From Candidatus Amesbacteria bacterium RIFCSPLOWO2_01_FULL_49_25 (GTDB lineage: Bacteria; Patescibacteriota; Microgenomatia; CAZETR01; Amesbacteraceae), in NCBI GenBank assembly GCA_001773725.1, contig MEXP01000001.1, positions 1 through 52,245 on the forward strand: 52,245 nt of DNA. Direction: 5' to 3'. Position numbers and translations under genes: made by a program. This document shows, piece after piece, positions 26,317 to 48,341 of this stretch. The notes beneath the pieces were generated by a model that saw only the letters and a program-made list of their open reading frames with translations, had not been told where the DNA came from and ran no database searches. How positions within the stretch are numbered: position 1 is the stretch's first letter; each line of letters begins with the position of its first letter.

Positions 26317-27416
26317 TCCATACTCCTTTCCACCAACTGCAACATCTCTTTTTTAAATCTTTCCTCCGAAAACCTCCCCGCCCATTTTTTAATTTCTGTC
26401 TCATTCCACTTTAGTTTATTAAAGTCTTTCATCGCCTTTCCCAACCCTTCCACGGAATAATCGTCAAACAATAATCCAGTCTTTTTATTTACCACCGTCT
26501 CTCTGTACCCCCCGCCATCAAAAGCAATTACCGGCGTTCCGCACGTCATTGCCTCAACGGGAGTTATCCCAAAATCCTCATTTTTCGCAAGCGCCAAAAA
26601 GGCCTTCGCCCCCGCCATCAACCTATACTTTTCTTCCTCACTCACCCTCCCCAAAAACTCAATATTAGAATAATTAGAGTAATTAGAAATTAGAAATTTA
26701 TTAGAGTACCCTGCTCTCTCCCCCGCAATTTTAAGTTCAAAGCCATATTTTCCGGCCGCCTCAATCGCTAGTTCCAACCCTTTCCCCCCCACAATCCTCG
26801 ACACTATCAAATAGTAATCTTTTCTCTTATATCCTCCCGCTCTTACACTCTTACATTCTACCGGCGGGTATATCACCACACACTCCCTCCTATAAAACTT
26901 CCTTATCCTACTCGCCACATTTTTAGAATTGGCCACGAATATATCTACCTTTTGCGCTTGTTCAAAATCATGCATTCGCAAAAAATGTCCCACTATCAAC
27001 GCATACACTCTCACTGGCCAATATCTTTGCCAGTTAATCGACGTCTCATATCCATACAGCCACCTCGGCGGGGTATGGCAATAACAAATTTCTTTAACTC
27101 CAAACCTTTTACCTAATCCTTTAGTTACATACCAGCTGGCCGAAGTAATTATCAGGTCATAGCCAGAAAAATCAAGGCTTCCCCAGATCCATGGGATCAA
27201 AAATCTCAGCGGACTATACAGCCGCTCATAAAACGGCAAGAGCCCAAACCAGGAAGTAATAACTTTTCTACCCTCAAAGGCCTTAGTCGCGCTCGACCCT
27301 GGTACCGTAAATGCGGTGTAAATCGGCGCTTCCGGCCATATCTTGGACAGCGCCTCAAGCACTTTCTCCGCCCCCCCGTACTCATTCAAATAGTCGTGGA
27401 CTAAAGCAACTTTCAC
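26313..27416 (-). CDS. Glycosyltransferase family 4
   Basis: VHDYL..YGGAE, EDFGITPVEAM..G.PV. Confidence 0.92.
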   Translation of the reverse strand: MKVALVHDYLNEYGGAEKVLEALSKIWPEAPIYTAFTVPGSSATKAFEGRKVITSWFGLLPFYERLYSPLRFLIPWIWGSLDFSGYDLIITSASWYVTKGLGKRFGVKEICYCHTPPRWLYGYETSINWQRYWPVRVYALIVGHFLRMHDFEQAQKVDIFVANSKNVASRIRKFYRRECVVIYPPVECKSVRAGGYKRKDYYLIVSRIVGGKGLELAIEAAGKYGFELKIAGERAGYSNKFLISNYSNYSNIEFLGRVSEEEKYRLMAGAKAFLALAKNEDFGITPVEAMTCGTPVIAFDGGGYRETVVNKKTGLLFDDYSVEGLGKAMKDFNKLKWNETEIKKWAGRFSEERFKKEMLQLVERSME

Positions 27417-28550: not shown

Positions 28551-30434
28551 TTACGAATTCATTATCTTAATAAACTCTTCCCCATCCATATTTTCAATCT
28601 CCAACAGCCTAATAGATACTTCGTCCAGCTTCTTTCGATATTTTTTAAGTAATTTGACCGCTGTCTCATATCCCTCGTCCACAAATCTCTTTACCTCCGC
28701 GTCAATTTTGGCCTGCATGTCTTGGGACACTTGTGCCGGCTCATAAAACGCCTTTCCCCACTCCACCATATCCTGCCTCGGCCCATAGTTAACCGGCCCC
28801 AGCTCACTCATTCCGTACTCCACTACCATCCCGCGCGCCACTTCTGTCGCTTTGTCAATATCATTAGCCGCCCCGGTCGTCATCTCCGAGAAAACCAGTT
28901 CTTCCGCCGCCCGTCCCCCCAGCATCATGGCGATTTGGGAGATCAATCTCTTCTTCGTCTCATGCACCCTGTCGGCCGCCGGCGGGATCAAAGTGTGTCC
29001 CAAGGTCATCCCCCGCGACACTATAGAAATTCTGTGTACCGGATCCATCCCCGGCTGCGCCCAAGACACAATAGCATGTCCCATCTCGTGATACGCCGTC
29101 ATCTTCCGATCTTCTTCAGACTGCAATCTCTTTTTCTGCGGCCCCAACTTCACTTTGGTCGCCGCTTCTTCAATATCCTTCATTTCAATCAACCTCTTGT
29201 CCTCCCTGGCCGCCGTAATCGCCGCCTCATTAAGCATGTTTTCCAAGTCAGCGCCAGAAAAACCTACCGTCCTTTTGGCCACCGCCTCCCAATTTACTTC
29301 CGGGGTAAACGGCTTGTTCTTGGCATAAATACTCAAGATAGCCCTCCTGCCCTCAATATCTGGCATGTCCACGACCACCCGTCTGTCAAATCTACCCGGG
29401 CGCAGAAGTGCCGGATCCAGAAGGTCTCCGCGATTCGTGGCCGCCAAAACTACCACGTTGTCATTTGGCGTAAACCCATCCATCTCCACCAATATCTGGT
29501 TTAAAGTCTGTTCCCGCTCATCATGCCCGCCCATAATCCCATATCCTCTCTGCCGCCCAATAGCATCAATTTCATCAATAAAAATAATGGACGGCGCGGT
29601 TTTTTTAGCCGTGGCAAACAAATCCCTTACCCGAGCCGACCCTACCCCGACCAGCATCTCCATAAATTCAGACCCAGCCATAGAATAAAACGGCACATTG
29701 GCCTCCCCCGCCACGGCCTTTGCCAACAACGTTTTCCCCACTCCGGATGGTCCGACCAGCAATGCTCCCTTGGGTGTCCTGGCTCCCACCGCCTTATACT
29801 TAGCCGGGTTTTTCAAAAAGTCCACCACCTCTTCCAACTCTTTCTTCGCTTCGTCCACCCCGGCTACATCAACGAACTTTACAGATGGTTTCCCTTTATC
29901 AAACAATTTCGCCCGGCTCTGTCCAAAAGAAAACAACGAATCCTGGGCCCCCCTAGCTTGTCGAAACATATACAGCAAAACCAAAAGCACTACCCCCGTC
30001 CCGATTATTGACGGCAAGACAGCCGCCACCAGCTGTCCCAAGGTCTGATCCTTTATCTCGTACCCCACCATCGTGGGATCAATCTTTGCCCGATCCAATA
30101 TCTCAGTCAGACTCTCATTCCCTTCTTTTCGGGTCACCAGCTCCTGTCCATCTTTATAAATCAAAACCATTCTCTCCGAATAAACGTCAATCTTTTGCAC
30201 CTTGCCGTCCTTAACGTCCACCAGTGCTTGGGATAAAACAATCTCCTTGCCCGCGTTTTTCCCGCTGTACCACAGCTCCACCAGGGACAACATCATGAGT
30301 ATCACCACTCCCAGCCAAATCAATTTCTGGAAATCAAACTGCATCTGCACCATAATCCCTCGGATCGGACCTTTTTTTCCGTTTTTACCATTCTTATGAT
30401 TATTCGTTTTTAGAGGTTCCGGCAACTTCGCCAT
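28551..30434 (-). CDS. ftsH: ATP-dependent zinc metalloprotease FtsH
   Basis: Two TMs, AAA domain, HEMGH. Confidence 0.97.
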   Translation of the reverse strand: MAKLPEPLKTNNHKNGKNGKKGPIRGIMVQMQFDFQKLIWLGVVILMMLSLVELWYSGKNAGKEIVLSQALVDVKDGKVQKIDVYSERMVLIYKDGQELVTRKEGNESLTEILDRAKIDPTMVGYEIKDQTLGQLVAAVLPSIIGTGVVLLVLLYMFRQARGAQDSLFSFGQSRAKLFDKGKPSVKFVDVAGVDEAKKELEEVVDFLKNPAKYKAVGARTPKGALLVGPSGVGKTLLAKAVAGEANVPFYSMAGSEFMEMLVGVGSARVRDLFATAKKTAPSIIFIDEIDAIGRQRGYGIMGGHDEREQTLNQILVEMDGFTPNDNVVVLAATNRGDLLDPALLRPGRFDRRVVVDMPDIEGRRAILSIYAKNKPFTPEVNWEAVAKRTVGFSGADLENMLNEAAITAAREDKRLIEMKDIEEAATKVKLGPQKKRLQSEEDRKMTAYHEMGHAIVSWAQPGMDPVHRISIVSRGMTLGHTLIPPAADRVHETKKRLISQIAMMLGGRAAEELVFSEMTTGAANDIDKATEVARGMVVEYGMSELGPVNYGPRQDMVEWGKAFYEPAQVSQDMQAKIDAEVKRFVDEGYETAVKLLKKYRKKLDEVSIRLLEIENMDGEEFIKIMNS

Positions 30435-30446
30435 ATATTCCCAATT

Positions 30447-30767
30447 CTACCTTACTTTACTCCCAACTGCCACATCCTCCACCGGCACCAAAAAAATCGG
30501 TTTATCATCTCCCACTGCCAAAATCATCCCTTGCGACTCTTCGCCCATGATCTTTTTGTACTCCAGATTCATCACGAAAATAAACTTTTTATTCAAAAAA
30601 TATTCCGGACTATATCCAAACGGCCTCACCGCCGTAAAAATAGTCCTCAACTCACTGCCAATGTCAACAATTAACTTAATTAACTTAGTACTCCTCTCTA
30701 CTTCGCCCGCCTCCACCACCAACCCCACCCGCATCTCAATCTGCTTAAATTGATCGAGTGTAATCAT
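30447..30767 (-). CDS. tRNA-binding OB-fold protein (MetRS C-terminal/Trbp111/CsaA-like)
   Basis: F...EMRVG.V, NL..KKIMGEESQGMIL. Confidence 0.88.
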   Translation of the reverse strand: MITLDQFKQIEMRVGLVVEAGEVERSTKLIKLIVDIGSELRTIFTAVRPFGYSPEYFLNKKFIFVMNLEYKKIMGEESQGMILAVGDDKPIFLVPVEDVAVGSKVR

Positions 30768-31753
30768 TGCCTCACAAATCCCACTTTCTCGTAAACCTCC
30801 ATCAGTTTCTTGTGGGACAGTTCATATGATTTCTTCGCTCCATTTGCCAAAATCTTTTCCAGCCCCCCCGAACTCCTCAGTTCCTTGTACCTGGCCTGCA
30901 AAGGTTTCAATAAACCCACTACCGCATCAGCCGCCGCAGTTTTAAACTCACCGTATTGCCGGCCTTGAAACTCCACTTCAACTTCGGCCAGACTCTTACC
31001 CTTAACCAAGGAGTAAATCCCCATTAAATTTGCTACCCCAGGTTTCTTTTTTACATCATACCGTATTTCGGTCCCGCTATCAGTTGTAGCCAATTTAATC
31101 TTTTTAACCACCGCATCCGGTTCATCCAACAATCCCACCGCCCCCATCAAATCCGCATCGCTCTTACTCATCTTTTTCGTTGGGTCAACCAAACTCATCA
31201 CCCTCCCTCCGGACTTAGGTATAACCGGAACCGGCAGCACAAAAGTCTCACCAAACCTGGAATTAAACCTCTCCGCCACATTCCTCGTCAGTTCAACATG
31301 CTGTCTCTGGTCCTCCCCGACAGGCACTTCCGTCGTGTCATACAGCAAAATATCGGCAGCCATAAGGGCCGGATAATCAAACAACCCCACACTCACAAAA
31401 TCCTTCTTTTCGGACTTTTCCTTAAATTGCGTCATCCTGTTCATCTGCCCCATAGATAGAAAGCAATTCAATGCCCATCCCAAATTGGCGTGGTCGGGAT
31501 TATGCGACTGGATAAACAGCAATGATTTTTCCGGATCCACCCCCGCCGCCACAACCAACCCGGCCACCTCCAACGTTTTCTCCCGCAACACATTCGGGTC
31601 TTGCGGTACGGTGATAGCATGCATGTCAACAATACAAAATATATTTAGACCTGCTTGCTGGCCCGCCGCCCACTGCCTCATCGCCCCCAGATAATTACCA
31701 ATGTGCAAATTCCCACTCGGCTGTATCCCCGAAAACACAACTCTCCCAATCAT
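30764..31753 (-). CDS. trpS: Tryptophanyl-tRNA synthetase
   Basis: SGIQPSG.LHIGN, YPALMAADIL, VPVGEDQ, KMSKS. Confidence 0.97.
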   Translation of the reverse strand: MIGRVVFSGIQPSGNLHIGNYLGAMRQWAAGQQAGLNIFCIVDMHAITVPQDPNVLREKTLEVAGLVVAAGVDPEKSLLFIQSHNPDHANLGWALNCFLSMGQMNRMTQFKEKSEKKDFVSVGLFDYPALMAADILLYDTTEVPVGEDQRQHVELTRNVAERFNSRFGETFVLPVPVIPKSGGRVMSLVDPTKKMSKSDADLMGAVGLLDEPDAVVKKIKLATTDSGTEIRYDVKKKPGVANLMGIYSLVKGKSLAEVEVEFQGRQYGEFKTAAADAVVGLLKPLQARYKELRSSGGLEKILANGAKKSYELSHKKLMEVYEKVGFVRQ

Positions 31754-31761
31754 ATCTTCAA

Positions 31762-33150
31762 TTATAAAGCATCTCTAAGTTTAGTAAAAAAGACAGGCAA
31801 AGAACTTTTACCAACTCCTCCGATAATTTTATTTTCTTCGCCCTTATCCTCCTCAATTAACACCACCCCATTTCTACCAAGTACTCCCAAAGACAATAAG
31901 CTCGCCAATTGAGCGTATACTCTCTCTCGAGCAAACTCCCTACCAGGATCGGTATCCAAAATCTTCTTATTAGATTCATATCGATAATCAACTCTTGATT
32001 CCACCAATCCTTCCGATAAAGGTGAACGCCCGGACCGAAGTTGATCCAATTGATTTCTCCTTAAAGAATCGAACTTATTCAAAACCCCATTCTTGCTCAT
32101 AAACTCTCGCAAAAACTCGACTTCTGACCCATCCATTTGCTGAGATATTGCTAATTTATATCTAAATAGCGACTCCTGAGTTTCCAACAGATCCGCATCC
32201 GGAACAACTCCATCCCCTCCTCTAGGAAAATAATCAATTAAATCTTGATCTGATAATAATACCTTTAATCGAACTTTTATCCCCAGTTCCTCAAAAATTC
32301 TTCGGATGTCGGCCAAACGGTCGAACAATTGCACTTCACTAACCGGCCGATGCACACCTCCATCCTTAGTCGGCACCTCGACATTCCGTACATGATCAAC
32401 TAGTTGCAATCTATTACCAAAAGGATAGGTAAATCTCAAACATTTGATATGAACCAAATTCAAAGGCTCTTCACTCTTTATAGCTTCCAGCAAATTCTGT
32501 TTTAATGTCGTTTCATTAGTGGGTATAGACATTTGCAATTTTCTCATTTCATATCTTGCTCCAACAAAAGCAAACAGCTGTTCCCTATCCAAAGAGTTAT
32601 TAATTCCGTAAAACAAGTCCCTTGTCAAGGTTGAAATTTCTGAATTTAAATTTTTAGATCGAAAATAACCTTCATATTCCTCATTTCCCACGTCACTCCT
32701 CAACTTTCCCATCAGAATATTTTCCGCCTTATTAAAAACCACTGGAAAACTCGCCGGAAGACTTTCTGAAGAAAAAATCGCCCCTTTTCGCATTTCACTT
32801 GCAGCTTTCTTACACCTTAAATCGCCCTCCTTCTCCACAACTTGCAAAACCAACCCTCTGTACAACGACACTCCTGAACTGGTTTTAACCTTCTCCAGCT
32901 GACTCCGGCAATAATCGACCACTGCATTTTTGATATTTCCATCCACCTCAACTTCAATCGGGGTTGCCATTATTTTTTCCCTTAATTCGTCAAACCTAAT
33001 TCCTCCACCAACAGATTTATTCAATAAAAAATCCCTCAATAACTTCCTCTCATCTGATCTTTTAGAAGCTCTGACAAGTATCTCATCCAGCAAGTCCTGC
33101 CGGTGAATCGATTCTACGTTAACTATCGCTCCAAACAAATTCATAGTCAC
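31762..33150 (-). CDS. Unknown 462-aa protein in the T-box-controlled unit
   Basis: Long AT-rich ORF with strong SD (AGGAGG, 33160-33165); C-terminal alpha/beta domain. Confidence 0.85.
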   Translation of the reverse strand: MTMNLFGAIVNVESIHRQDLLDEILVRASKRSDERKLLRDFLLNKSVGGGIRFDELREKIMATPIEVEVDGNIKNAVVDYCRSQLEKVKTSSGVSLYRGLVLQVVEKEGDLRCKKAASEMRKGAIFSSESLPASFPVVFNKAENILMGKLRSDVGNEEYEGYFRSKNLNSEISTLTRDLFYGINNSLDREQLFAFVGARYEMRKLQMSIPTNETTLKQNLLEAIKSEEPLNLVHIKCLRFTYPFGNRLQLVDHVRNVEVPTKDGGVHRPVSEVQLFDRLADIRRIFEELGIKVRLKVLLSDQDLIDYFPRGGDGVVPDADLLETQESLFRYKLAISQQMDGSEVEFLREFMSKNGVLNKFDSLRRNQLDQLRSGRSPLSEGLVESRVDYRYESNKKILDTDPGREFARERVYAQLASLLSLGVLGRNGVVLIEEDKGEENKIIGGVGKSSLPVFFTKLRDAL

Positions 33151-33213
33151 ACCAAACCGCCTCCTTTCTAGGAGGCAAAACTAATCCTGAAAATGAAACC
33201 GTTCTTTCTTTCA

Positions 33214-33287
33214 TGGTGAGAATGGAGGGACTTGAACCCTCATTTCCCGTTTTGGAGACGGGCGCTCTACCCTTGAGCTACATTCCC
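33214..33287 (-). tRNA. Atypical tRNA with Trp anticodon CCA (A73, G1-C72, G2:U71)
   Basis: GGGAATG/CATTCTC-A-CCA, CCCGT-CTCCAAA-ACGGG, GAGGG-TTCAAGT-CCCTC. Confidence 0.9.
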
Positions 33288-33291
33288 ATAT

Positions 33292-33500
33292 AAAAGGCCC
33301 TTGCAAACACCCGAGTTCAAATAACTAAACTCAGAAATTTACAAGGGCCTACAAGTTAAGCGGTGCCACCTTGCGTTGTACTCTTCTTGACATGCTCCGC
33401 TACTGCGACACATGTTGCTGACTTTTACGGTTTCGCCTCCGTACGATACTTTTCGTCCCCTCCCCCGTTCCAACCTTCGGGATCAATGGGTTTGCAAATT
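33292..33500 (-). promoter_or_regulatory. T-box riboswitch, Trp (UGG) specifier, ultrashort Stem I, transcriptional terminator
   Basis: T-box AAGGTGGCACCGC (33360-33372); terminator AGGCCCTTG...CAAGGGCCTTTT; K-turn Stem I with loop AAGGTTGGAA. Confidence 0.85.
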
Positions 33501-33508
33501 GTAGGTTA

Positions 33509-33537
33509 ATTATAGCAAATATATCAAATTAAAACAA
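33509..33537 (-). promoter_or_regulatory. Promoter of the T-box leader
   Basis: TTGTTT-17-TATAAT with extended TGn. Confidence 0.7.
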
Positions 33538-33564
33538 GATTCTAATCCCCCGTCTAAGCTGATA

Positions 33565-33723
33565 CTACCTCACGCACGCCTCTACAATTTTCTGATCCGC
33601 TCTCTCCTGATACTTAACCCCGTACAAAAACCCAATGAGTGGCAAAGCCGCAAACAAAATCGCTGTAATAGTCCTCGAAAGCGGCGTCACCGTAGTCCAA
33701 TACTTGGGCAGTTTTTTACTCAC
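33565..33723 (-). CDS. Small membrane protein (52 aa, not in the ORF track)
   Basis: MSKKLPKYWTTVTPLSRTITAILFAALPLIGFLYGVKYQ..., single TM. Confidence 0.65.
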   Translation of the reverse strand: MSKKLPKYWTTVTPLSRTITAILFAALPLIGFLYGVKYQERADQKIVEACVR

Positions 33724-33842
33724 ATATTTATACTAATATATTCGTTTCTCCAAAATCAATAGCCTCTTTTCCACCTCATCCCTGCTCAATTCACAACGCT
33801 AGACCAAAATGGTAAAATGAGGCTGTCCTTTAAAAAAAGACG

Positions 33843-33912
33843 TGCGGGGTAGTGTAAAGCTGCACGGAAGGCTCATAATCTTCCAGTCTGGGTGCGATTC
33901 CCAGCCCCGCAA
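33843..33912 (+). tRNA. tRNA(CAT), Met-type; anchor of the cassette array
   Basis: TGCGGGG/CCCCGCA, GAAGG-CTCATAA-TCTTC, CTGGG-TGCGATT-CCCAG. Confidence 0.85.
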
Positions 33913-34028
33913 CAAGGAGCGCAGCGACGAAGTGGTGATCGAAGTCGAACCACACGTAAAATTTGGCTTCATAACTTGAGGTTAGGGAGTGGTAAAGTCA
34001 CACCTAAAATGAATGGTAAAATTAGGCA

Positions 34029-34808
34029 ATGGGAATGATAATGAGCTACGAAGAGTATCTGAAATTGGGCAGGCAACCAAACCCTTATTTGGTGTGGATA
34101 GCCAGTAAAGGCAAACAACTATATTTTTTGGGTTCTAGTCATTCTTTCAACCCAGCAGATTCTATCCACCAAGTGACGAAGCACTATTGGCATGATTTTT
34201 TGGGATCTGTCGGTAATAAAAAACCGGTAGTTTTAATTGAAGGAGGGAAAAGATCCATTAGTAACAGTGAGGATGAAGCCATTAGGAAGTTTGGGGAAGC
34301 AGGATTGGTGGCGTTTCTAGCTGCACAAAATGGTTGGGAGCATGAATCCCCTGAACCTAATTTGTTGACAGAAACATCTGAACTACGGAAGGAATTTTCC
34401 GAAGAGGAAATCTGGACTTATTACTTCACCCGAATGGCGGCTCAATGGAACAGACTGTTAAATAAGCCAGACATTTGGAGTTATGTGAGAAACTCATTAT
34501 TGAAAGATAATGAAGAATTGAAGTGGAATGCGGATAATCTTGGCCAAGAAAGTTTAGTTAACAATTTTGCAAAATTATCTGGACAAAAATTTGTTGAGTT
34601 CGACTACGAACTATTAAATGGATTGTGTGATCCAACAAAAACAAAAACAAAAATAAATCAGGTGTCCAGGAGAAGTGGACAAATAAGGGACGAGTATATT
34701 GTGCAAAAGATAACAGAACATTGGAAAAACGGAGAGAGTATTTTTGCTGTTTATGGCAGAAGCCATGTGGTTATGCAGGAACCGGCACTAAGACGGTTGT
34801 TAACCTAG
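34029..34808 (+). CDS. Hypothetical protein (cassette 1), weakly TraB/GumN-like
   Basis: 259 aa; LYFLGSSH, VLIEGG, RD..I, AVYG.SH. Confidence 0.8.
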   Translation: MGMIMSYEEYLKLGRQPNPYLVWIASKGKQLYFLGSSHSFNPADSIHQVTKHYWHDFLGSVGNKKPVVLIEGGKRSISNSEDEAIRKFGEAGLVAFLAAQNGWEHESPEPNLLTETSELRKEFSEEEIWTYYFTRMAAQWNRLLNKPDIWSYVRNSLLKDNEELKWNADNLGQESLVNNFAKLSGQKFVEFDYELLNGLCDPTKTKTKINQVSRRSGQIRDEYIVQKITEHWKNGESIFAVYGRSHVVMQEPALRRLLT

Positions 34809-34820
34809 CTATAAACCAGG

Positions 34821-34847
34821 TTCTGATTTCTTCCAACCCCCGCAACA
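34821..34847 (+). repeat. Cassette boundary site 1
   Basis: TTCTGATTTC-ttccaacc-CCCGCAACA. Confidence 0.85.
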
Positions 34848-34854
34848 CAGTAGG

Positions 34855-34884
34855 AATGGAGGCCCACAAAGCCTCCATTTTTTA
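34855..34884 (+). terminator. Intrinsic terminator at the start of cassette 2
   Basis: AATGGAGGC-ccacaaa-GCCTCCATT followed by a T tract. Confidence 0.75.
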
Positions 34885-34920
34885 TTGAACCATCACAAGT
34901 TCTCCTGTATCATTCATCTA

Positions 34921-35267
34921 ATGAGACAAAAATATTTATTATCCCTCTGGTAATTCTTGCAACATACTACCTGCTATCTTTCGGGATAGGATATTTGCTA
35001 ATTGTTTTAGGGTTACGTGCCGCTGGTGGATTCTTCTCTGGAGGAAATTTCTGGTCAAACTTTTTGTTTTTGGCAATACCATTGTCGAATTTTTTACTTC
35101 TAGGGATTGCTATTTGGCAACTTGTTGATCAGGCAAAGAGATTGAATGTTGATCATAAAACTAGGAATGTTGTCGTTATCATCTTTTTGGCCATTTACTT
35201 TCTCTACAGTAGTCCTTTACGAAATATCCCATTAAACCTGTGGCACTGGTTTATAAAAAGACAGTAG
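34921..35267 (+). CDS. Membrane protein (cassette 2), apparent 1-nt frameshift near the start
   Basis: Hydrophobic frame open from ~34929. ATG 34921 is out of frame by one base in an A5 run. Confidence 0.6.
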
Positions 35268-35268
35268 G

Positions 35269-35295
35269 TTCTGATTTCATGTATTCCCCGCAACA
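35269..35295 (+). repeat. Cassette boundary site 2
   Basis: TTCTGATTTC-atgtattc-CCCGCAACA. Confidence 0.85.
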
Positions 35296-35340
35296 AGGAG
35301 CGAAGCGACGCCGAAGGACAAAAACATTTACAATCATCTC

Positions 35341-35586
35341 GTGTACTTCGTTTATATACTTCTTTGTCAGGACGGCAGTTTTTACACCGGTAGCTCCAGT
35401 AATCCCCGACAACGTTTCCTCGACCACCAAAACGGCAAGGGTGGTGCCTACACTCGCTCCCACAAACCAATTAAAATAGTTTACACGGAAGAACTCCCAG
35501 ACAAATCCTCCGCTCTCAAACGCGAGTCACAAATCAAAGGCTGGAGTCGCCAAACGAAAATTAAAATTTTAAATTTACGATTCTGA
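35341..35586 (+). CDS. Small GIY-YIG nuclease (UPF0213-like; cassette 3)
   Basis: YFVYILLC.DGSFYTG, R...H..GKG..YTR, ALKRE.QIK.W.R. Confidence 0.92.
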   Translation: MYFVYILLCQDGSFYTGSSSNPRQRFLDHQNGKGGAYTRSHKPIKIVYTEELPDKSSALKRESQIKGWSRQTKIKILNLRF

Positions 35587-35607
35587 TTTCATCCAATTCC
35601 CGCAACA
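35581..35607 (+). repeat. Cassette boundary site 3
   Basis: TTCTGATTTC-atccaatt-CCCGCAACA. Confidence 0.85.
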
Positions 35608-35630
35608 CAACCTCTTGGGTATGCAAACTT

Positions 35631-35987
35631 CTAGAGATTTGAGGACAAACCGTATATCGGGGAAAGAATGCTTGTTAGCGAAGAGGCCAAGTAAGAACCA
35701 CCCAACACAAACATCACCGCCAAAGCGATTACTCCCAATTTAAACATTTTTTCGTTTGGTAATTTCCCAAAAACTAGCCTGGCCCCGATGTATACGACTC
35801 CGGCCAAAACCACAGCCGCAATTGCAGTCAGATACGGATATACTCTGGTCAGAAACGGCAATTGCGCCCCAAAATCTTGATACAGAGAACTTAACTTCGG
35901 ATAAATAAAAAATAGCATCACTATTTGCTGAACCAATCCCAGGCATCCAAAAATCAAATCCAGCCACCCCACTACTTTGTATTTCAT
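35631..35987 (-). CDS. Membrane protein (PilC/GspF-fragment-like)
   Basis: Three TMs, P.L..LY.DFGAQLP.LT, C-terminal PIY.L. Confidence 0.65.
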   Translation of the reverse strand: MKYKVVGWLDLIFGCLGLVQQIVMLFFIYPKLSSLYQDFGAQLPFLTRVYPYLTAIAAVVLAGVVYIGARLVFGKLPNEKMFKLGVIALAVMFVLGGSYLASSLTSILSPIYGLSSNL

Positions 35988-36080
35988 AGTCTAATGATAT
36001 ACCACTGTAGCAGAGCTTAAGAAACGTTGGTTGTGAGAAATACGAACCGGTGATACAATAAACCATAGATACCATTTTCC

Positions 36081-36758
36081 ATGGCAAAATCGTTCCTTAA
36101 AAACAAAGCGGTCAAGCTTCGAAAATCCGGCCAGAGCGTCAAGAACATAGCCAAATCACTAAGCGTCTCCAAAAGCACCGCCAGTTTATGGGTCAGAGAT
36201 GTAGTTCTTTCTCTTGAGCAAGAAGAATTTTTAAAACAAAGGTCTCTAAAAGGTGCAGAAAAAGGCCGCACTATTGGATCGCTTGTTCAAAAACAAAGAC
36301 GGCTTGAACTGCTGGAAGCAGAGAAAAAAATCGGTATAAAAGAAATGGGCCAATTCACCAAAGATAAGCTCAAAATCGCCGGCTTAGCTCTATACTGGGC
36401 TGAAGGGTCCAAAAAGAACCGTAGAGTCGAGCTTTGTAACTCAGATCCCATGATTATCAAGTTCTTTATTAATTGGCTCACTAAAACCTTCGACATAGCC
36501 ATAAGGGAACTCTCTTGTTACGTCGGTATTAATGAAGCTCACAAAGCCAGAGAAACTGAAGTGAAAAATTACTGGTCGCTCTTAACAAAAATCCCCCTCA
36601 CCAGTTTCACTAAAACAAGCTTCAAGAAGTATCCCCTCAAAAAAGAGTATCCGAATTTTAACGAACATTATGGCACGCTCTCAGTTCGCGTGCGGAAACC
36701 AGCACGAATTTACTATAAAATCCTAGGTGAAATCCACGGACTATCCATGGCTACGTAG
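36081..36758 (+). CDS. HTH plus LAGLIDADG-like protein overlapping a tRNA 5' end
   Basis: N-terminal HTH (LRKSG.S...IA..L.VSKST.S.W), GLALYWAEGSK, NSDP. Confidence 0.8.
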   Translation: MAKSFLKNKAVKLRKSGQSVKNIAKSLSVSKSTASLWVRDVVLSLEQEEFLKQRSLKGAEKGRTIGSLVQKQRRLELLEAEKKIGIKEMGQFTKDKLKIAGLALYWAEGSKKNRRVELCNSDPMIIKFFINWLTKTFDIAIRELSCYVGINEAHKARETEVKNYWSLLTKIPLTSFTKTSFKKYPLKKEYPNFNEHYGTLSVRVRKPARIYYKILGEIHGLSMAT

Positions 36759-36821
36759 CTTAGTGGTTAAAGCACTGGTATCATAAACCAGGAACCGCTG
36801 GTTCGAATCCAGCCGTAGCCA
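36749..36821 (+). tRNA. tRNA-Met(CAT), elongator-like
   Basis: GGCTACG/CGTAGCC-A, CTGGT-ATCATAA-ACCAG, GCTGG-TTCGAAT-CCAGC. Confidence 0.9.
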
Positions 36822-37003
36822 CCTGTGTCCAAAGACATTTTATTCCAAGCCCGCGCGCCTAGAAACTCAGGACCTACAACCTTTATCCATTCGGAACAAG
36901 GAATACGTGTCCCGTATTCCGAAATCAGAAAAAAATACAACTTAGACAATCAACCCCCAACCTTCGAACAACCCCCACCAAAACTGCCCTCCGAGAAAGT
37001 TGT

Positions 37004-37345
37004 CTAAATCCTCACATACAACTCCCACCACTTCCTCCAGTTTGCCTGGCGCCCCTCCGAAGTTTTAGCGGAAGGGAGCTCCGCCGGTGTAGGCAGGATG
37101 ACCACCACCTCCCCAGGTTTACCCAACCCCAGCTTCTCCCTCGCCTCACGCTCCACAAATTCGTCCGTTTGCACATACTCCAGCTGTTTCTTTAACTCAG
37201 CCTGTTCAACCAGGGCCTGCGCCAGCTCAGCCTCTGTTTCACCCACCCTGTCCCCCGCCTTATAAAGCCGCCACACATTACTCCCCAACCGGACTGTCAT
37301 CACTACTCCAAGTCCTATAATAATCCAGTCCCTGATCCGCCTCAC
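37004..37345 (-). CDS. Septum formation initiator (FtsB/DivIC family)
   Basis: TM, coiled coil, EREAREKLGL.KPGE. Confidence 0.88.
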   Translation of the reverse strand: MRRIRDWIIIGLGVVMTVRLGSNVWRLYKAGDRVGETEAELAQALVEQAELKKQLEYVQTDEFVEREAREKLGLGKPGEVVVILPTPAELPSAKTSEGRQANWRKWWELYVRI

Positions 37346-37400
37346 TCTTGCATCCTAGCACACTTTAGGCTACAATTCCTAAGTTAAGGAGTATCCTGTA

Positions 37401-38276
37401 GTGAACACTATACCAGATCCCATCAGTTTCGAATCTGCCCTAGAGAAGTTTATCGCCCATCTCAAAGACCACCGCCGGTCTGCCGCCACCACCATCGCCT
37501 ACCACGGCGATCTCCGCCAGTTGCACGAGTTTCTCAAAGAGCGCCGCATCACCCAGGCCACCACGGTTCAAACCGTCCATTTGGAAGAATTTATCACCAA
37601 TCTTTCCACCAAAGGCTACACCCCAAAAAGCATCAGCCGCAAGATCAACTCCCTCAAAACATTTTTCAAATTCCTGATCGACTCCGGCCTCCACTCCCAC
37701 AACCCCAGTTCTCCCCTCACCCACCCCAAGTACGACATCAAAGCCCCCCGCATCCTCTCCGAGACCGAACACAAAAGTTTAAGGGACGCCGCCCGACTGG
37801 ACATCAGAATTTCCGCCATCATCGAGCTCCTTCTCCAAACCGGTATCAGAATCGGCGAGCTGGCCAATATCCGTATGGAAGATACCAAAAAAAACGAGGT
37901 GCACATCCGCCCCGCCGAAAGTAACCCCGAAAGAATTATCCCCCTCAACAAGACCGCCTCAACCGCCCTGCAAAACTATCTCTCCATAAGACCTCAAGTC
38001 GAAAACGACCATCTTTTCGTCACCAAAACCGGCCATCCCCTCCTTGTCAGAAACATCCGCACCGCCATCGACCGTTATTTCAAAAAAGCCGGCATCAAAG
38101 ACGCCAAAGTCAACGACCTCCGCCACACCTTTGCCGCCCATCAGCTCAAAAGCGGTGTCCACCCCGATTTCCTAACCCAGATTCTGGGCCATAAGCGCAA
38201 ATCCTCGACCGAAAAATATCTCGATTACGTCAAAATCGAAGTTACCCAATTCTCCACCCGCCTCACCGAACTGTAA
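37401..38276 (+). CDS. XerC/XerD-like tyrosine recombinase
   Basis: SAM-like N-domain, TGIRIGEL, LRHTFA, LGH, T..Y. Confidence 0.93.
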   Translation: MNTIPDPISFESALEKFIAHLKDHRRSAATTIAYHGDLRQLHEFLKERRITQATTVQTVHLEEFITNLSTKGYTPKSISRKINSLKTFFKFLIDSGLHSHNPSSPLTHPKYDIKAPRILSETEHKSLRDAARLDIRISAIIELLLQTGIRIGELANIRMEDTKKNEVHIRPAESNPERIIPLNKTASTALQNYLSIRPQVENDHLFVTKTGHPLLVRNIRTAIDRYFKKAGIKDAKVNDLRHTFAAHQLKSGVHPDFLTQILGHKRKSSTEKYLDYVKIEVTQFSTRLTEL

Positions 38277-38282
38277 TAAATT

Positions 38283-38528
38283 ATGAAGCAACCAGACAAA
38301 ATCGAGCATAGCATGAATAACATTCTAAATATCTGGCTAGGTTTCAGGGCAATAGATCCCCTTCTAGCCAAACCCATGACTCTCCAAATTGCCGCCAGAC
38401 ACCTGCAAATCCACGGACCTGATTTTCTTCAAACCCTTAAAAATGAACCCCGGCTTGCACTGACCGAAGAAGACCTGAAAATCCTAGCCCAAGGCCTCCA
38501 GCCGGATCAGCCAGATCAACCACAATAA
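38283..38528 (+). CDS. Hypothetical protein
   Basis: Tightly packed between xer and the YbaK-like gene. Confidence 0.5.
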   Translation: MKQPDKIEHSMNNILNIWLGFRAIDPLLAKPMTLQIAARHLQIHGPDFLQTLKNEPRLALTEEDLKILAQGLQPDQPDQPQ

Positions 38529-39023
38529 ATGCCAGAAATCTTCACCCTCCTCAACTCCCTCGGCATTTCCTACACCCTCCACAAACATCCTCCCGTCTTC
38601 ACCTGCAGCGAGGCCGATAAATACTGGGCAAATACCACAGCGGCCCACACCAAAAACCTCTTCTTAAAAACTGAGAAATCTCCCCACAAATACTTCCTCT
38701 ATATTTTAGAATGCTCCCAGCGGGCAGATCTCAAATCCCTCGCCAAATCTCTCAATTTACCATCTCGCCTCACTTTTGCCAACAACACCGAGCTTAAAAA
38801 TAATTTAGGCCTCACTCCCGGCTCCGTCTCCCCCTTCGGCCTCATCAACGATCAAAATCATTTAGTCACCGTAGCTATCAGCTCACAGCTCCAAACCAAA
38901 AGCTATCTACTGTTCCACCCCAACACCAACACCGCAACTTTAGAAATCAGTTGGGAAAACTTCAAAAAATTTCTCTCCCACACCGGCCACAACTACAAAC
39001 TAATCACCACGAGTAAACCATAA
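38529..39023 (+). CDS. YbaK/ProX-family aminoacyl-tRNA deacylase
   Basis: HPPVFT, KNLFL, GSVSPFGL.ND, FHPN.NT. Confidence 0.92.
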   Translation: MPEIFTLLNSLGISYTLHKHPPVFTCSEADKYWANTTAAHTKNLFLKTEKSPHKYFLYILECSQRADLKSLAKSLNLPSRLTFANNTELKNNLGLTPGSVSPFGLINDQNHLVTVAISSQLQTKSYLLFHPNTNTATLEISWENFKKFLSHTGHNYKLITTSKP

Positions 39024-39264
39024 ATCCCCCACACATCGCCTCCTGGATTTTCAAAACCCTATCTTTGCTGGGAGCCATCAAAAACGGCAGGCATAAAACT
39101 ATCTCCCGACCCAATATCCCAGGTTGTATTTTTACCGCCCGCCGACCAGCCGCTTCTTCCAGAAACTCCTCTTTAAGCTCAGGGTGCAACCCGTCGTTAG
39201 TTTCGGAATATCTGCAAGACCCACTTTGATTACAAAAGTAACATGTCCGGAAAACCTCGGCCAT
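39004..39264 (-). CDS. Hypothetical Cys-containing protein
   Basis: CxxC near the N-terminus; directly downstream of a tRNA. Confidence 0.45.
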   Translation of the reverse strand: MAEVFRTCYFCNQSGSCRYSETNDGLHPELKEEFLEEAAGRRAVKIQPGILGREIVLCLPFLMAPSKDRVLKIQEAMCGGFMVYSW

Positions 39265-39271
39265 AGGTGGG

Positions 39272-39343
39272 TGGGCCCGGGAGGATTCGAACCTCCAACA
39301 TAATGTGTATAAGACATTCGCTCTACCGTTGAGCTACAGGCCC
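39272..39343 (-). tRNA. tRNA-Ile(TAT)
   Basis: GGGCCTG/CGGGCCC-A, AATGT-CTTATAC-ACATT, GGAGG-TTCGAAT-CCTCC. Confidence 0.9.
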
Positions 39344-39391
39344 AGCAGTCCAATTTTAACTTACACTCCTCTACTCTTCCACTCTCCTGCT

Positions 39392-41737
39392 CTAAAGTTT
39401 GCTCCTCGTCGCGATTTCACTCTCCACCAGCCGTATGTCCTTCCCGTATTTCAGTCGCGACAGCTGTTTTATAGCATCAGCCAGTTTTTGATTCCGCAAG
39501 GTTCTCTCCGTCACCACGTCCTTAGTCACGTCCATTGTAAATGGCGTCACTGGCTCGTTCCTTACGATAGTTTTAACAAACACATTAAACCTCTCGATGT
39601 TCAAAAGGTCCGACTCATTAAAAGTCGGCGTGTACTCATGCTGCAGGTAACTGGCATCTGCCACCCCCGTCCGGAAAGAAATCAAAGTACCCACGTTGCC
39701 AAACACCGCGTTTTTTACCTCGTCCTCCATTTGCGACGTAAATTGGTTGGCCACGGTCAGATTCAATTTATACTTACGTGCCTCAGACAAAATCGTGGCA
39801 AAATCCGGTGTGGCAAAGTTTTGAAACTCATCCACATACAGATAAAACGGCCGTCGCTCCTTCTCGGGTATATCCGCCCGGCTCATGGCCGCCGCCAGAA
39901 GCCGCGGCACCATCACCAGTCCCAGGAAATTAGAGTTCTCCTCCCCCAGCTTTCCTTTGGACAAATTCACAATCAAAATCTTCCCCTCGTCCATTACTTT
40001 TCTAAAATCAAACGCCGATTGCGACTGCCCGATAATATTCCTGATAGTTTTGTTGGTAATAAACCGCCCGAATTTAGACACGATGTAATCCAGCACTTCG
40101 GACTTGTGAAACTCGCTCGTCTGGGCAATCTGATCCGTCCAGTACCGCCGCACCAGCGGGTCCTTCACCCGCGGCAGCAGTTCCTGCACAAATTCCGGCC
40201 TCTGTAGTGTCTGTACCACCTCGATAAAAGTTCCCCCGGGCACCGCGTCCATCACCGTCAGCATGGCATTTCGAATCGCATGTTCAAATCTCGGCCCGAT
40301 AATCCCGGTCTTATGCGGATCATACAGCTTATACATCATCCCGATCACCGCATTAGTCGCCATATGCCTCTCCTGGTCAGACCGGGCTTCGATCAAATTC
40401 ATCCCCATCGGCCGCTCTTCGTCAGAAGGCTCAAAAAAGATCACATCCTCCGCCCGGCTGGGAGGAATATAACCCAGCAAATCTTCAGCCAAATCGTGCG
40501 GATCGATCACGCACACCCCTCTCCCCGCCTGGATATCTTGAAGAATCATGGTTTTCAAAAATTCCGTTTTTCCCGTTCCCGTCCGCCCGATGATATACAT
40601 ATGCCGCTCCCTATCAGACTCACCGATATACACCGGCCGGGTAGTTCCTCTAAACACCGACTTTCCCAAGTAAAGTCCTTCTGTAGCAATTTGCTGGGGC
40701 GCCGGCGCCCGCTTGGCATTCAACCAGAATATATGCGGCGTCTCCACCGTCTTGTTGGGAAAATGATAAATAGTCGCCAGCTCCTCACTGTTCAAAATCG
40801 TCCAGTTTCCCCACCACACTGCCGGCTGGTACCGGTAAATAAAGTCCATCATAAAATGTCCCCTCAATCGAATCTTTTTACCCTTAAGCCCGTTCAAATC
40901 ACCATTAAACTGTTCAAATGTCGCCCGAATATTGGCCATATGCGCCTTGGCCGAAGCACCATCGCCGGAACACACCACAATCCGAATTGTGGTCATAAAC
41001 CCGTTTTTAGACACTTTGTTGTCCACCGCCTCCAAAGTCTTCGCGTCCACTTTGTAGCTCGCTTTCTCCGGGTCCGCCTCAGATTTTTTAGTTTTGCCTA
41101 TCCACATTCTGCCCTTCTTTTTCCAAGCAGCCTCTGCTGGGGAAATCAATATCTGCAAATGCACTCCTTCCCCGTCTCCCATCTTGCCCATCGCCGAGGT
41201 CACCGCCGCCAGCGGGTCTACCGCCAGGTTTTTATACACCTGCAACGGATAGTGTGCCGAGTTGCGCAAAGCCAGCCACGAGAACTCCACTCTGCCTTCT
41301 TTGGTAAAAATGTTTGGCTCCTCCACCACCCTAATTTCCGCCCCCGGATAGCTTCCGTGAATTTGCTTCTCCACCAAATCTCGCAGTTTCTCAGGCAGAA
41401 CAATGCAAAACCGGATATCCTCCTTCCGACCCACTATCTCCAAAGATATATGCGGCTGGACCTGCAAAAAAGTCAGCCACCCGAAAGGTCCTTTTGGTCC
41501 CTTCTTAATCGAATACAAGCTGGCGATCACCTGTTCCATCGCGTCTATCTTTATCTCGTTGTCCCGCGGCACTGCAATCTGCAGGCACACCGTCTGCAGG
41601 CTCTGCTCTTCCCGATCTTTATGCCGGTACCAAATCACCAGCAAATACCCGGTCAAAACCATCACAAACACCAGTATCCCTAGTACCACCATCAAGCCAA
41701 CCAGCTGCAGCAATAAAACCATCAGTCCGGATTCCAT
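39392..41737 (-). CDS. VirD4/TraD-like (HerA-FtsK superfamily) membrane ATPase
   Basis: HMYIIGRTGTGKT, IDPH, LYVDEFQNF, SEARKY. Confidence 0.9.
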   Translation of the reverse strand: MESGLMVLLLQLVGLMVVLGILVFVMVLTGYLLVIWYRHKDREEQSLQTVCLQIAVPRDNEIKIDAMEQVIASLYSIKKGPKGPFGWLTFLQVQPHISLEIVGRKEDIRFCIVLPEKLRDLVEKQIHGSYPGAEIRVVEEPNIFTKEGRVEFSWLALRNSAHYPLQVYKNLAVDPLAAVTSAMGKMGDGEGVHLQILISPAEAAWKKKGRMWIGKTKKSEADPEKASYKVDAKTLEAVDNKVSKNGFMTTIRIVVCSGDGASAKAHMANIRATFEQFNGDLNGLKGKKIRLRGHFMMDFIYRYQPAVWWGNWTILNSEELATIYHFPNKTVETPHIFWLNAKRAPAPQQIATEGLYLGKSVFRGTTRPVYIGESDRERHMYIIGRTGTGKTEFLKTMILQDIQAGRGVCVIDPHDLAEDLLGYIPPSRAEDVIFFEPSDEERPMGMNLIEARSDQERHMATNAVIGMMYKLYDPHKTGIIGPRFEHAIRNAMLTVMDAVPGGTFIEVVQTLQRPEFVQELLPRVKDPLVRRYWTDQIAQTSEFHKSEVLDYIVSKFGRFITNKTIRNIIGQSQSAFDFRKVMDEGKILIVNLSKGKLGEENSNFLGLVMVPRLLAAAMSRADIPEKERRPFYLYVDEFQNFATPDFATILSEARKYKLNLTVANQFTSQMEDEVKNAVFGNVGTLISFRTGVADASYLQHEYTPTFNESDLLNIERFNVFVKTIVRNEPVTPFTMDVTKDVVTERTLRNQKLADAIKQLSRLKYGKDIRLVESEIATRSKL

Positions 41738-41746
41738 ATTTATAAT

Positions 41747-42253
41747 TTAGCGCTTGGTACCCAACATTTCTAACTGTCGTTTGCACCACCTCGCCAGCCA
41801 GGCAATCGCCTCCCACACCTTATGGTGCAATCCTTCCTCTATTTCCTCCGTAGTCAATGGCAAAGTCACCTTAACAGTCTGCGGCGCCGCCGGTTTCAAG
41901 AGTACTTGCTGTGTGTAGTCGTCCATCACCGGCCCGGCCAGTTCCACCTCCTTCTCCACCCTTTGCATGTACCCCTCTATCTCCTTCCCCACCTCGGGGG
42001 TAGTGGGGATCTCCACCATCTCTCCCGGCTTTTGTACCTCCCGTGGCTTCAATTTTTCTTTCGCAAACATATCTAGCCTCTCCTTAAAAGACCCTCCCGC
42101 GTTATACGCCGCCTGGAAATCCCGTCTCCTTTCCTCAAATTCCTCGACCACGTTGGCCAAACTATCCTCCTGAACCGGATTTTTGGTCAGTTCATCCAAG
42201 TCAGCCGCTGCCTTTTGACCCGGCGTCTGACCTGTGACTTGTACATCATCCAT
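41747..42253 (-). CDS. Conserved hypothetical protein
   Basis: C-terminal LPLT...GLH....A..WLA.WC. Confidence 0.75.
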   Translation of the reverse strand: MDDVQVTGQTPGQKAAADLDELTKNPVQEDSLANVVEEFEERRRDFQAAYNAGGSFKERLDMFAKEKLKPREVQKPGEMVEIPTTPEVGKEIEGYMQRVEKEVELAGPVMDDYTQQVLLKPAAPQTVKVTLPLTTEEIEEGLHHKVWEAIAWLARWCKRQLEMLGTKR

Positions 42254-42276
42254 ATCTCCATCTTACCAGACCTCTC

Positions 42277-42780
42277 CTACCCCCTCCATACCTCCTCTTC
42301 CCCGTCTTTTTTAAAGTTAACCCACCTGGCCATCACAAACAGTGCGTCTGACAACCGATTCATATACTTCAAAATATTTTGGTTAACCATATTACCATTT
42401 GTTACAGAAAGATTCACGATTTCACGCTCTGCCCTTCGGCAGACGGCCCTCACCACCTGCAGCTCCCCCACCGGGTAAATAAAATTCGAGAGCTTCGGCA
42501 GTTCACCGCTCAACTTATCAATAAGTTTTTCCAATCGCCTAATTTCTGAATAACTTAATTTCTTCCCCGACCCCGCCAACCCCGACGCAATGACAAACAA
42601 ATCTGTCTGAATTCTCTTCAATTCAGCTTCTAGTGGAGTTTTATATCGGCACATTCCCACCCAACTATTCAGCTCGTCAATACTCCCTATGGCCTTCGCC
42701 AACTGATCCGACTTTTGCATCCTCCCCCTCATCGTCCCCGTCATCCCCCCATCCCCAGTTTTTGTATATATTTTCATCAT
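42277..42780 (-). CDS. pduO: ATP:cob(I)alamin adenosyltransferase (PduO type)
   Basis: KIYTKTGD.G.T, G.IDELNS, R.VCRRAER, NRLSD.LF. Confidence 0.93.
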   Translation of the reverse strand: MMKIYTKTGDGGMTGTMRGRMQKSDQLAKAIGSIDELNSWVGMCRYKTPLEAELKRIQTDLFVIASGLAGSGKKLSYSEIRRLEKLIDKLSGELPKLSNFIYPVGELQVVRAVCRRAEREIVNLSVTNGNMVNQNILKYMNRLSDALFVMARWVNFKKDGEEEVWRG

Positions 42781-42841
42781 TAGTTTTTATACAGCAACCC
42801 AAACTTCACTATCTTCACAAACAGCAATCTTAATAGTCCCA

Positions 42842-43282: not shown

Positions 43283-43297
43283 AAACCACCCCCAAGG

Positions 43298-43849: not shown

Positions 43850-43853
43850 CCTA

Positions 43854-44123: not shown

Positions 44124-44125
44124 GT

Positions 44126-46944: not shown

Positions 46945-46955
46945 AGATTTTCAAT

Positions 46956-47003: not shown

Positions 47004-47033
47004 GTCAACTATTAACTAGTACATCAAAAACTA

Positions 47034-48272: not shown

Positions 48273-48341
48273 CTCTCAAATATACACTATCTCATGTCTC
48301 CATACTGGACTATAGGATAGAAAGTGTGCTAAAATGCCCCC

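Follow-up and report, generated by a model that had tools for sequence, protein, structure and literature searches.

Small gene cassettes stacked behind the initiator tRNA gene of Candidatus Amesbacteria and its relatives

The array and its neighbourhood

Analysis of contig MEXP01000001.1 (positions 1–52,245; the whole stretch is hereafter called the window) of Candidatus Amesbacteria bacterium RIFCSPLOWO2_01_FULL_49_25, an ultra-small groundwater bacterium with an assembly of 958 kb, showed an array of three small gene cassettes directly behind a tRNA gene. An initial annotation, made from the sequence of the window, had described an integron-like array in which each cassette closes with a site of two invariant arms, of 10 and 9 bp, around a variable spacer of 8 bp. 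Scanning the window returned exact copies of TTCTGATTTC-N8-CCCGCAACA at 34821–34847, 35269–35295 and 35581–35607, all on the plus strand. The chance expectation for such a site in the window was 0.03, and none of 100 shuffled sequences gave three copies. Beyond these three, no site was present in the window at up to three mismatches, or in the whole 958-kb genome at up to two.

The array is anchored at an atypical tRNA-Met(CAT) gene of the initiator type, 71 nt long, at 33843–33913 on the plus strand (ARAGORN; 51.7 bits with the Rfam tRNA model). Its 5′ end reads TGCGGGG (T/CGCGGGG being the form in the family), its 3′ end is CCCCGCAAC, its T loop is TGCGATT rather than TTCRANY, and its D loop is short. 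This unusual form is kept across the family, as seen in loci L086–L111, and the gene is single-copy in 26 of 27 family genomes. It was assigned as the initiator by elimination, since the genome contains only two CAT tRNA genes and the second looks like an elongator. The right arm, CCCGCAACA, is present at the 3′ end of this tRNA (33906–33914) and the left arm is absent from it, both as originally described. The tRNA 3′ end CCCCGCAACA (33905–33914, plus strand) recurs at the close of each cassette site, and homology across contexts stops directly after the core CCCGCAAC.

Three cassettes follow on the plus strand. Cassette 1 (33914–34846, 933 bp) starts with the 5′ leader AAGGAGCGCAGCGACG, carries an open reading frame (ORF) of 259 amino acids (aa) at 34029–34808, and closes with site 1, ATAAACCAGG-TTCTGATTTC-TTCCAACC-CCCGCAACA (34811–34847). 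Cassette 2 (34847–35294, 448 bp) opens with a terminator-like hairpin at approximately 34856–34884, followed by an ORF of 90 aa (34995–35267) and site 2, AAGACAGTAGG-TTCTGATTTC-ATGTATTC-CCCGCAACA (35259–35295). Cassette 3 (35295–35606, 312 bp) consists of the leader AAGGAGCGAAGCGACG, an ORF of 81 aa (35341–35586) and site 3, AATTTACGA-TTCTGATTTC-ATCCAATT-CCCGCAACA (35571–35607), the final site of the array. The ORFs stop just before, next to or inside the left arm, as had been noted: 12 nt before it in cassette 1, 1 nt before it in cassette 2, and with a TGA inside the arm in cassette 3. The common start of cassettes 1 and 3, AGGAGCG(C/A)AGCGACG, was found again 3′ of the tRNA (33915–33929) and 3′ of site 2 (35297–35311). 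The terminator proposed for the start of cassette 2 corresponded to a hairpin and U-run of −18.7 kcal/mol (z −5.3), an assignment based on folding, as a simple terminator scan did not report it.

The cargo of the three cassettes is unrelated. The protein of cassette 1 belongs to a rare family with 23 relatives (best non-self match 47% identical) and showed a weak likeness to TraB/PrgY/GumN that was below the Pfam cut-off (E 8.5e-4). The protein of cassette 2 is hydrophobic and had no family match, and that of cassette 3 is a small GIY-YIG nuclease-domain protein (Pfam, 9e-21). None of the three ORFs matched an integrase, in agreement with the initial annotation. Two more small GIY-YIG genes are present in the genome, one on contig C5 (10851–11054), ending approximately 80 nt before a tRNA-Asp gene, and one on the minus strand of the window (8805–9014).

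Base composition also set the region apart. GC skew was about 0 to +0.33 across 33.75–36.75 kb, with positive values in cassette 1, vs. −0.3 to −0.5 in both flanks, which confirmed that cassette 1 lacks the skew of its surroundings. Around the array (30000–40000), the skew of −0.3 to −0.5 was strong whichever way the genes point, so that the strand asymmetry is not tied to the coding strand. The atypical skew extends over the stretch from the last site to the next tRNA gene (35631–36758), which has no closing site and contains two ORFs, at 35631–35987 (minus strand, 118 aa, membrane-like) and 36081–36758 (plus strand, 225 aa, with an N-terminal helix-turn-helix). The latter overlaps the first bases of the tRNA gene, and the rest of its protein has no family match; homologues adjoin tRNA-Met in loci L014, L021, L028, L091, L097, L107 (two copies) and L108. 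This second tRNA-Met gene, of the elongator type (36749–36823, plus strand; tRNA scan and Rfam), forms the conserved distal flank of the insertion point. A Xer-family tyrosine recombinase gene (37401–38276, plus strand; Pfam) lies beyond it in a conserved synteny of tRNA-Met, divIC and xer. A weak match to a T-box leader is located on the minus strand at 33340–33495 (28.3 bits, E 0.0038, far under the gathering score), upstream of tRNA-Trp, a 462-aa ORF and trpS.

Further observations concern the tRNA genes themselves. A group I intron interrupts the anticodon loop of the initiator tRNA gene, after GGCT, in 11 of 26 genomes of the family, and the copy in this genome is intron-free. Intron-bearing loci include L013 (3298–3507), L014 (2331–2589), L019 (3626–3837), L023 (2156–2356) and L087–L109, with Rfam RF00028 scores of 55–64 bits in four of them. 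Because the genome has just two CAT tRNAs, AUA is probably decoded not by a lysidine-modified CAT tRNA but by tRNA-Ile(TAT), which is encoded in the window at 39268–39344 (minus strand) in a synteny kept in several relatives. The tRNA-Gln of this genome ends with TCCCGCAGC after a canonical T arm, and contig C24 (approximately 26400–26760, minus strand) has a partial tRNA-Gln-like copy, with CCCCGCAGC at its end, behind a tRNA-Gln gene.

The docking site and its distribution

At up to two mismatches, the site was found in 10 of the 61 nearest relatives and, in a sample of 401 genomes from the class (Microgenomates-type bacteria of the candidate phyla radiation, CPR), in 58, compared to 12 of 401 for a reversed control pattern. 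An exact-match scan of one genome per prokaryote species (GTDB) returned 54 stretches. Twenty of these carried Microgenomates/Patescibacteria names (e.g., Candidatus Amesbacteria, Woesebacteria, Gottesmanbacteria, Levybacteria, Shapirobacteria and ‘Patescibacteria group’), and at least 7 more had the same site context under other taxon labels. The remaining matches came from unrelated phyla, were without the context, and were close in number to the arithmetic expectation of approximately 17 chance hits. A metagenome scan gave at least 116 stretches with the site, and 80 loci were retrieved. Pooling all retrieved loci yielded 118 distinct sites with typical context and 89 distinct cassettes, a cassette being defined as the interval between consecutive sites or from the tRNA to the first site.

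Across the class, the site usually sits downstream of the initiator tRNA gene. This tRNA was present upstream on the same strand in 27 of 76 distinct loci, 132–3052 nt from the first site; 38 of the 76 had less than 3 kb of upstream sequence and 11 showed no tRNA. Rechecking 9 of these 11 revealed the tRNA upstream on the same strand in two and inverted in two, and in locus L011 of genome G004 it was located 9 kb upstream of the first site. Many arrays are located at contig ends, as variable regions tend to do, which is only suggestive.

Conservation across the 118 sites spanned approximately positions −10 to +28 and covered an A-rich run, AGG, the ten-base arm, the 8-mer, the core and then A.A. 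The docking site is therefore about 36–40 bp long and consists of an A-rich AxAGG, TTCTGATTTC, a semi-conserved 8-mer and CCCGCAAC. The consensus of the 8-mer over the 118 sites was approximately [T/C/A]T[C/G][C/G/T]A[A/G][T/C]C, and its variants fell into few classes, such as TTCCAACC, CTGTAACC and CTGGAGTC. Aligned in register at identical spacing, CTGGGTGCGA, TTCCCAGC and the core CCCGCAAC of the tRNA correspond to TTCTGATTTC, TTCCAACC and CCCGCAAC of site 1. In this register, the 8-mers of the 118 sites resembled the 3′ strand of the tRNA T stem (mean best identity of 4.47 of 8 positions vs. 3.08 ± 0.10 after letter shuffling, where 500 shuffles reached 3.35 at most), and the last 9–10 nt of the sites were identical to the tRNA end. 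Being semi-conserved and T-stem-like, the 8-mer is not a free spacer: its fixed length stood as first described and its free variability did not. Judging from the alignment, the best reading of the site is a conserved non-tRNA arm joined to approximately 17 nt of tRNA 3′ sequence, running from the T-loop end to the tRNA 3′ terminus. The tRNA of some families ends with CTCCGCAAC and the sites still end with CCCCGCAAC; the site thus follows a consensus of its own rather than being recopied from every host tRNA. The nearest site variants, beginning with TGCGGATTTC, are distinct from the tRNA itself.

A tRNA 3′ fragment held in register is also what attR scars contain, and it would fit a history of accretion and decay in which, as in tDNA islands or tycheposons, integrase-carrying elements repeatedly integrated at the tRNA 3′ end and deletions left cargo and an att scar behind as immobile relics. 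For tycheposons, elements in tandem with partial copies of the tRNA between them have been described (10.1101/2020.12.28.424599). The non-tRNA arm TTCTGATTTC, however, is conserved in 118 sites from several candidate phylum-level groups, and neutral scars would not keep such an arm. This explanation appears unlikely to us, also in view of the cassette content and junctions described below.

Sequence rather than structure is conserved in the sites. Folding of the three window sites was no better than that of shuffled sequences (z 0.14, 0.41 and 0.79), and mutual information over the 118 sites showed neighbour effects only, with no long-range covariation. A long hairpin with a longer conserved upstream part was limited to a subfamily of 19 sites and is not general. 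No Rfam family was found at the sites, either at gathering thresholds in 14 loci or at E values of up to 1 in the window between 30000 and 41000. The sites are not attC-like, as the initial annotation had already stated.

The 89 distinct cassettes measured 136–2377 bp, with a median of 894 bp. One (L078) was excluded from later counts; 87 of the remaining 88 carry an ORF of at least 60 aa. A single gene per cassette in constant orientation, as originally noted, is found in the window and not elsewhere: the ORFs lie on the plus strand only in 55 cassettes, on the minus strand only in 24 and on both in 8. The site orientation was always that of the tRNA. This constancy even with minus-strand cargo points to a DNA site rather than an mRNA element. 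A regulatory module acting in RNA, with a tRNA-end-like processing signal and a terminator following genes and with the array arising from local duplication rather than mobility, would account for the position of the site between stop codon and terminator in many units (stop codon at most 15 nt from the arm in 24 of 63 cassettes) and for its resemblance to the tRNA 3′ portion. We nevertheless consider it highly improbable: orientation follows the tRNA and not the cargo, no conserved fold or Rfam family was detected as described above, the sites are confined to this one locus in the genome, and the cargo genes are mutually unrelated, so that duplication does not explain them.

A terminator-like hairpin with a T-run was present at the start of 46 of 88 cassettes, compared to 5 of 86 mid-cassette controls. 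A Pfam scan of 126 cassette ORFs matched 56 families, and the composition given here covers the 25 listed among them. GIY-YIG was the commonest cargo (12 ORFs), followed by NUDIX (6), Fic/DOC (5) and DUF433 (2); single ORFs matched a vitamin-uptake transporter, EamA, GNAT, cytidine deaminase, histidine phosphatase and HAD. Toxin-antitoxin-like genes were also among the cargo, and scans of single proteins added a reverse transcriptase and an endonuclease/exonuclease/phosphatase fold. The presence of GIY-YIG, Fic/DOC, NUDIX, deaminase, reverse transcriptase and toxin-antitoxin-like genes suggests that the arrays store conflict or defence functions. The cassettes are free of recombinases and of detectable pieces of them: tblastn with the genome's three tyrosine recombinases, one large serine recombinase and one Y1-like protein gave no hits in any of the 89, and no integrase family occurred among the 25 listed of the 56 Pfam families or in the separate scans of single proteins. 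The initial observation on the window thus extends to the relatives, and it speaks against accretion and decay, as does the compactness of the cassettes with their recurrent 5′ and 3′ modules.

Probable cassette movement and candidate enzymes

Cassette content differed between genomes, and empty sites were found in genomes G011 and G002, where the initiator tRNA is followed by tRNA-Met after 170 and 135 nt, respectively, and then by divIC and xer; in the source genome the two tRNAs are 2.8 kb apart. Shared cassettes stood in different contexts. One GIY-YIG cassette lies directly next to the tRNA in G010 and behind a site approximately 9 kb from the tRNA in G004, with 81% nucleotide identity over the full 441–444 bp. 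In two loci, the leader of this cassette type (TGAGGCTATTAA…) came after the tRNA, and in others after sites that carry six distinct 8-mers. The fourth cassette of L011 and the third of L012 were 95% identical and had different neighbours on both sides. A permutation of cassette order between G004 and G014 was considered and rejected, since this was the only shared cassette and the other likeness comprised 46 nt of the site region. The proposal of a cassette array at a tRNA 3′ end was borne out by these observations, including the suggested search of relatives for the motif and for variable content.

The junctions were exact. L132 and L188 were 100% identical through arm, 8-mer and core and diverged from the first base after CCCGCAAC, and L017 and L128, in which the preceding cassettes are unrelated and differ in their 8-mers, were 93% identical downstream of the core. 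In the majority of informative pairs, the boundary lies at the end of CCCGCAAC, with the 8-mer moving with the upstream cassette. In a comparison with assembled contigs from public sequencing runs, contig X18 (depth 2.8) contained a homologue of cassette 1 (approximately 89% identical) fused directly to site 2, which means that cassette 2 is missing from X18. Loose contig ends at 33914, 34817 and 34846 mostly represented other organisms sharing the tRNA or the site. The recurrence of the same cassettes in new contexts with exact junctions is a further point against immobile relics.

The locus looks like a gene-capture site that functions as an integron does without being one. The explanation we favour, and regard as probable, is that a trans-acting enzyme inserts integrase-less cassettes at the tRNA 3′ end through site-specific recombination. 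Cassettes would enter successively at the 3′ terminus of the initiator tRNA gene, which is single-copy. Each is composed of a short leader, in many cases containing an intrinsic-terminator hairpin that would stop transcripts arriving from upstream, then of cargo (one gene or a few, in either orientation), and of the docking site. A circular cassette, we infer, would recombine with the tRNA 3′ end or with a resident site through a conservative exchange inside the shared CCCGCAAC segment or at its end. Such an exchange would leave the tRNA intact and stack the cassettes in one orientation, with the recombinase being supplied in trans.

Several observations weigh against this explanation or its details. 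TTCTGATTTC and CCCGCAACA do not form inverted repeats, the genome contains no dif-like palindrome made of either arm, and no recombinase is tied to the sites. Circular junctions, which had been suggested as a check, were not detected, with terminal overlaps of 15–200 nt in 0 of 134 assembled loci. No site was seen in 343 of the 401 class genomes, and all relatives are metagenome assemblies that are possibly chimeric at variable loci. The initiator tRNA is inverted relative to the array in L019 (G062) and L025 (G108), 59–120 nt upstream of the first site. In genomes G001 and G021, the sole copy of the initiator tRNA lacks its 3′ part. In G021 (L013, 3278–3996), the 3′ exon ends after CATAATCTTCC and is followed by an ORF and a site, and then by the native trailer that is seen 3′ of the tRNA in its congener G011; in G001 (L100, from position 1500 of the reverse-complemented copy), the tRNA breaks off in the T stem. 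The missing 3′ part was not found elsewhere in either assembly. These truncated tRNAs may be products of aberrant recombination or assembly chimeras.

Two junctions were placed to the left of the 8-mer, which also counts against a single exchange point: L011_5989 and L012_5299 were 95% identical up to the arm and then differed at 6 of 8 positions, and the X18 contig has the 8-mer of the downstream site. Either the exchange point is not fixed, or other recombination also acts. Variable exchange within the identity segment of approximately 17 nt, or occasional homologous recombination between arms, would explain both boundary patterns. At the tRNA itself, an exchange to the left of the 8-mer would spoil the T stem, so that only exchange within or after the core should survive there.

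The initial annotation had considered the arm-N8-arm layout to fit a tyrosine recombinase and had pointed to the Xer-like gene nearby. With arms that are not inverted repeats and a semi-conserved, T-stem-like 8-mer, the first argument did not hold. The gene at 37401–38276 was confirmed as Xer-family: its protein scored alike on the NCBIfam XerC, XerD and XerA-like models, always below the cut-offs, and its closest relatives of solved structure (PDB) were XerA and XerD. It scored 67 bits with the integron integrase model TIGR02249 (cut-off 265) and 25.9 bits with NF011946 (cut-off 435). Orthologues 42–66% identical were present in 43 other retrieved loci. As the order tRNA-Met, divIC, xer is kept at empty sites too, the nearness of xer reflects conserved synteny and by itself says little. 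No GC-skew switch was found at the locus, which indicates that it is not the terminus or dif region. Other recombinases in the genome are two more tyrosine recombinases, a large serine recombinase beside the transfer-messenger RNA gene, and a Y1-like protein. The first candidate for the trans-acting enzyme, and a doubtful one, is the syntenic Xer-family recombinase. That the whole forms a class-wide integron-like platform, with the initiator tRNA as insertion point, a docking site of 36–40 bp, cassettes with their own terminator and the syntenic host Xer as recombinase, seems rather unlikely in this complete form.

Larger elements also use the same locus. On contig C39 of G004 (approximately 40450–49500; L011 and L228), a 9-kb insert lies between the tRNA and the first recognisable site and encodes a Toprim+AAA_25 primase-helicase-like protein as well as DUF5659, tRNA_anti-like and cytidylyltransferase-like proteins. 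The primase-helicase-like gene marks the insert as replicon-type, and such use of the locus by larger elements is a point in favour of accretion. No integrase was found in the insert, which fits a host-supplied enzyme without proving one.

A different chemistry could also be envisaged, with a GIY-YIG nuclease cutting empty sites and causing homing-type copying, or with an IS200/IS605-like Y1/HUH enzyme pasting units 3′ of CCCGCAAC. The rank of GIY-YIG as top cargo, with 12 of 126 ORFs, would suit the former, yet most cassettes have the same ends and no GIY-YIG gene, and the GIY-YIG proteins, of 81–107 aa, consist of the catalytic domain only. Junctions exactly 3′ of a fixed 8-mer and the long hairpin of the site subfamily would suit the latter. 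Non-autonomous elements of the IS200/IS605 type (PATE-like) have subterminal hairpins at either end, with a Y1 transposase in the host. Here, a 5′ hairpin was present in 46 of 88 cassettes and a 3′ hairpin in the subfamily only, and Y1_Tnp-like genes (200–250 aa) occur in this genome and in 255 of 401 class genomes, often in several copies, with at least 10 identically scoring copies in one genome. The hairpin is not general, however: as reported above, the window sites folded no better than shuffles (z 0.1 to 0.8) and long-range covariation was absent. A Y1_Tnp match occurred in 32 of 37 site-bearing genomes vs. 223 of 364 others, a weak difference that is confounded by kinship; the 37 were hand-picked from the 58 for genuine-looking sites, and the 21 dropped were chance-like, nearly all being single hits with two mismatches. 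G004, G224 and G287 have arrays and no Y1_Tnp match. We consider such a chemistry quite unlikely. Trans-acting site-specific recombination of integrase-less cassettes remains our preferred explanation.

Relation to known systems

Functionally, the locus is closest to an integron. As in integrons, including sedentary chromosomal ones and clusters of attC sites lacking integrases (CALINs), promoter-poor and mostly single-gene cassettes are stacked one way at a fixed platform, and the recombination site closing each of them has a short core in common with the platform. Their cargo likewise is unrelated and accessory (GNAT, NUDIX, Fic/DOC, toxin-antitoxin-like), and its content varies between relatives. 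Two defining features of integrons are absent, namely IntI and attC-type sites: the only recombinase nearby is Xer-like (67 bits vs. a cut-off of 265), and the sites are short and conserved in sequence rather than imperfect hairpins. The platform also differs, being the 3′ end of an essential tRNA gene, and the cassettes often come with a terminator of their own.

Integration at a tRNA 3′ end with partial duplication of the tRNA is shared with tycheposons, with the accretion of ICEs (integrative and conjugative elements) and CIMEs (cis-mobilizable elements), and with the ssrA islands of Dehalococcoides. CIMEs are att-flanked units without an integrase that are moved in trans and are the nearest concept for the units described here, but they are larger and derived from known ICEs. 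The tRNA-targeting elements or their parents encode their own integrase and are kilobases long, whereas a recombinase was found in none of the 89 units of this study, which measure 0.14–2.4 kb and have a non-tRNA arm common to the whole class. In tycheposons, newer units are stacked next to older ones (10.1101/2020.12.28.424599).

Host Xer offers a third comparison. The layout of Xer sites is 11-6/8-11, with partly palindromic arms. Our sites do not have this layout, no palindromic version of them exists in the genome, they are all direct repeats, and the locus is not dif, as it has no GC-skew switch. The absence of a recombinase of their own and the syntenic Xer-family gene are points of likeness to integrative mobile elements exploiting Xer (IMEX) at dif and to the pdif modules of Acinetobacter plasmids, which are presented as small gene modules or elements with short sites and without their own recombinase that are moved by a housekeeping Xer enzyme of the host (PMC6449649, PMC13141974).

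A literature search, with supplementary files outside its scope, found no published description of such arrays. The earlier interpretation was partly supported: its main claim, a cassette array served in trans, was right, and its model of the site was wrong. To our knowledge, CPR bacteria (Patescibacteria) have tiny genomes with few recognised mobile elements, and their exchange of accessory and defence genes is poorly understood. The locus would represent a compact, integrase-less cassette system on the initiator tRNA gene that is conserved over the class. With the DNA site and the insertion point defined, and the candidate enzymes few in number, the question becomes directly testable. If the host Xer is indeed the acting enzyme, Xer-exploiting mobility would be extended from dif sites to tRNA genes.

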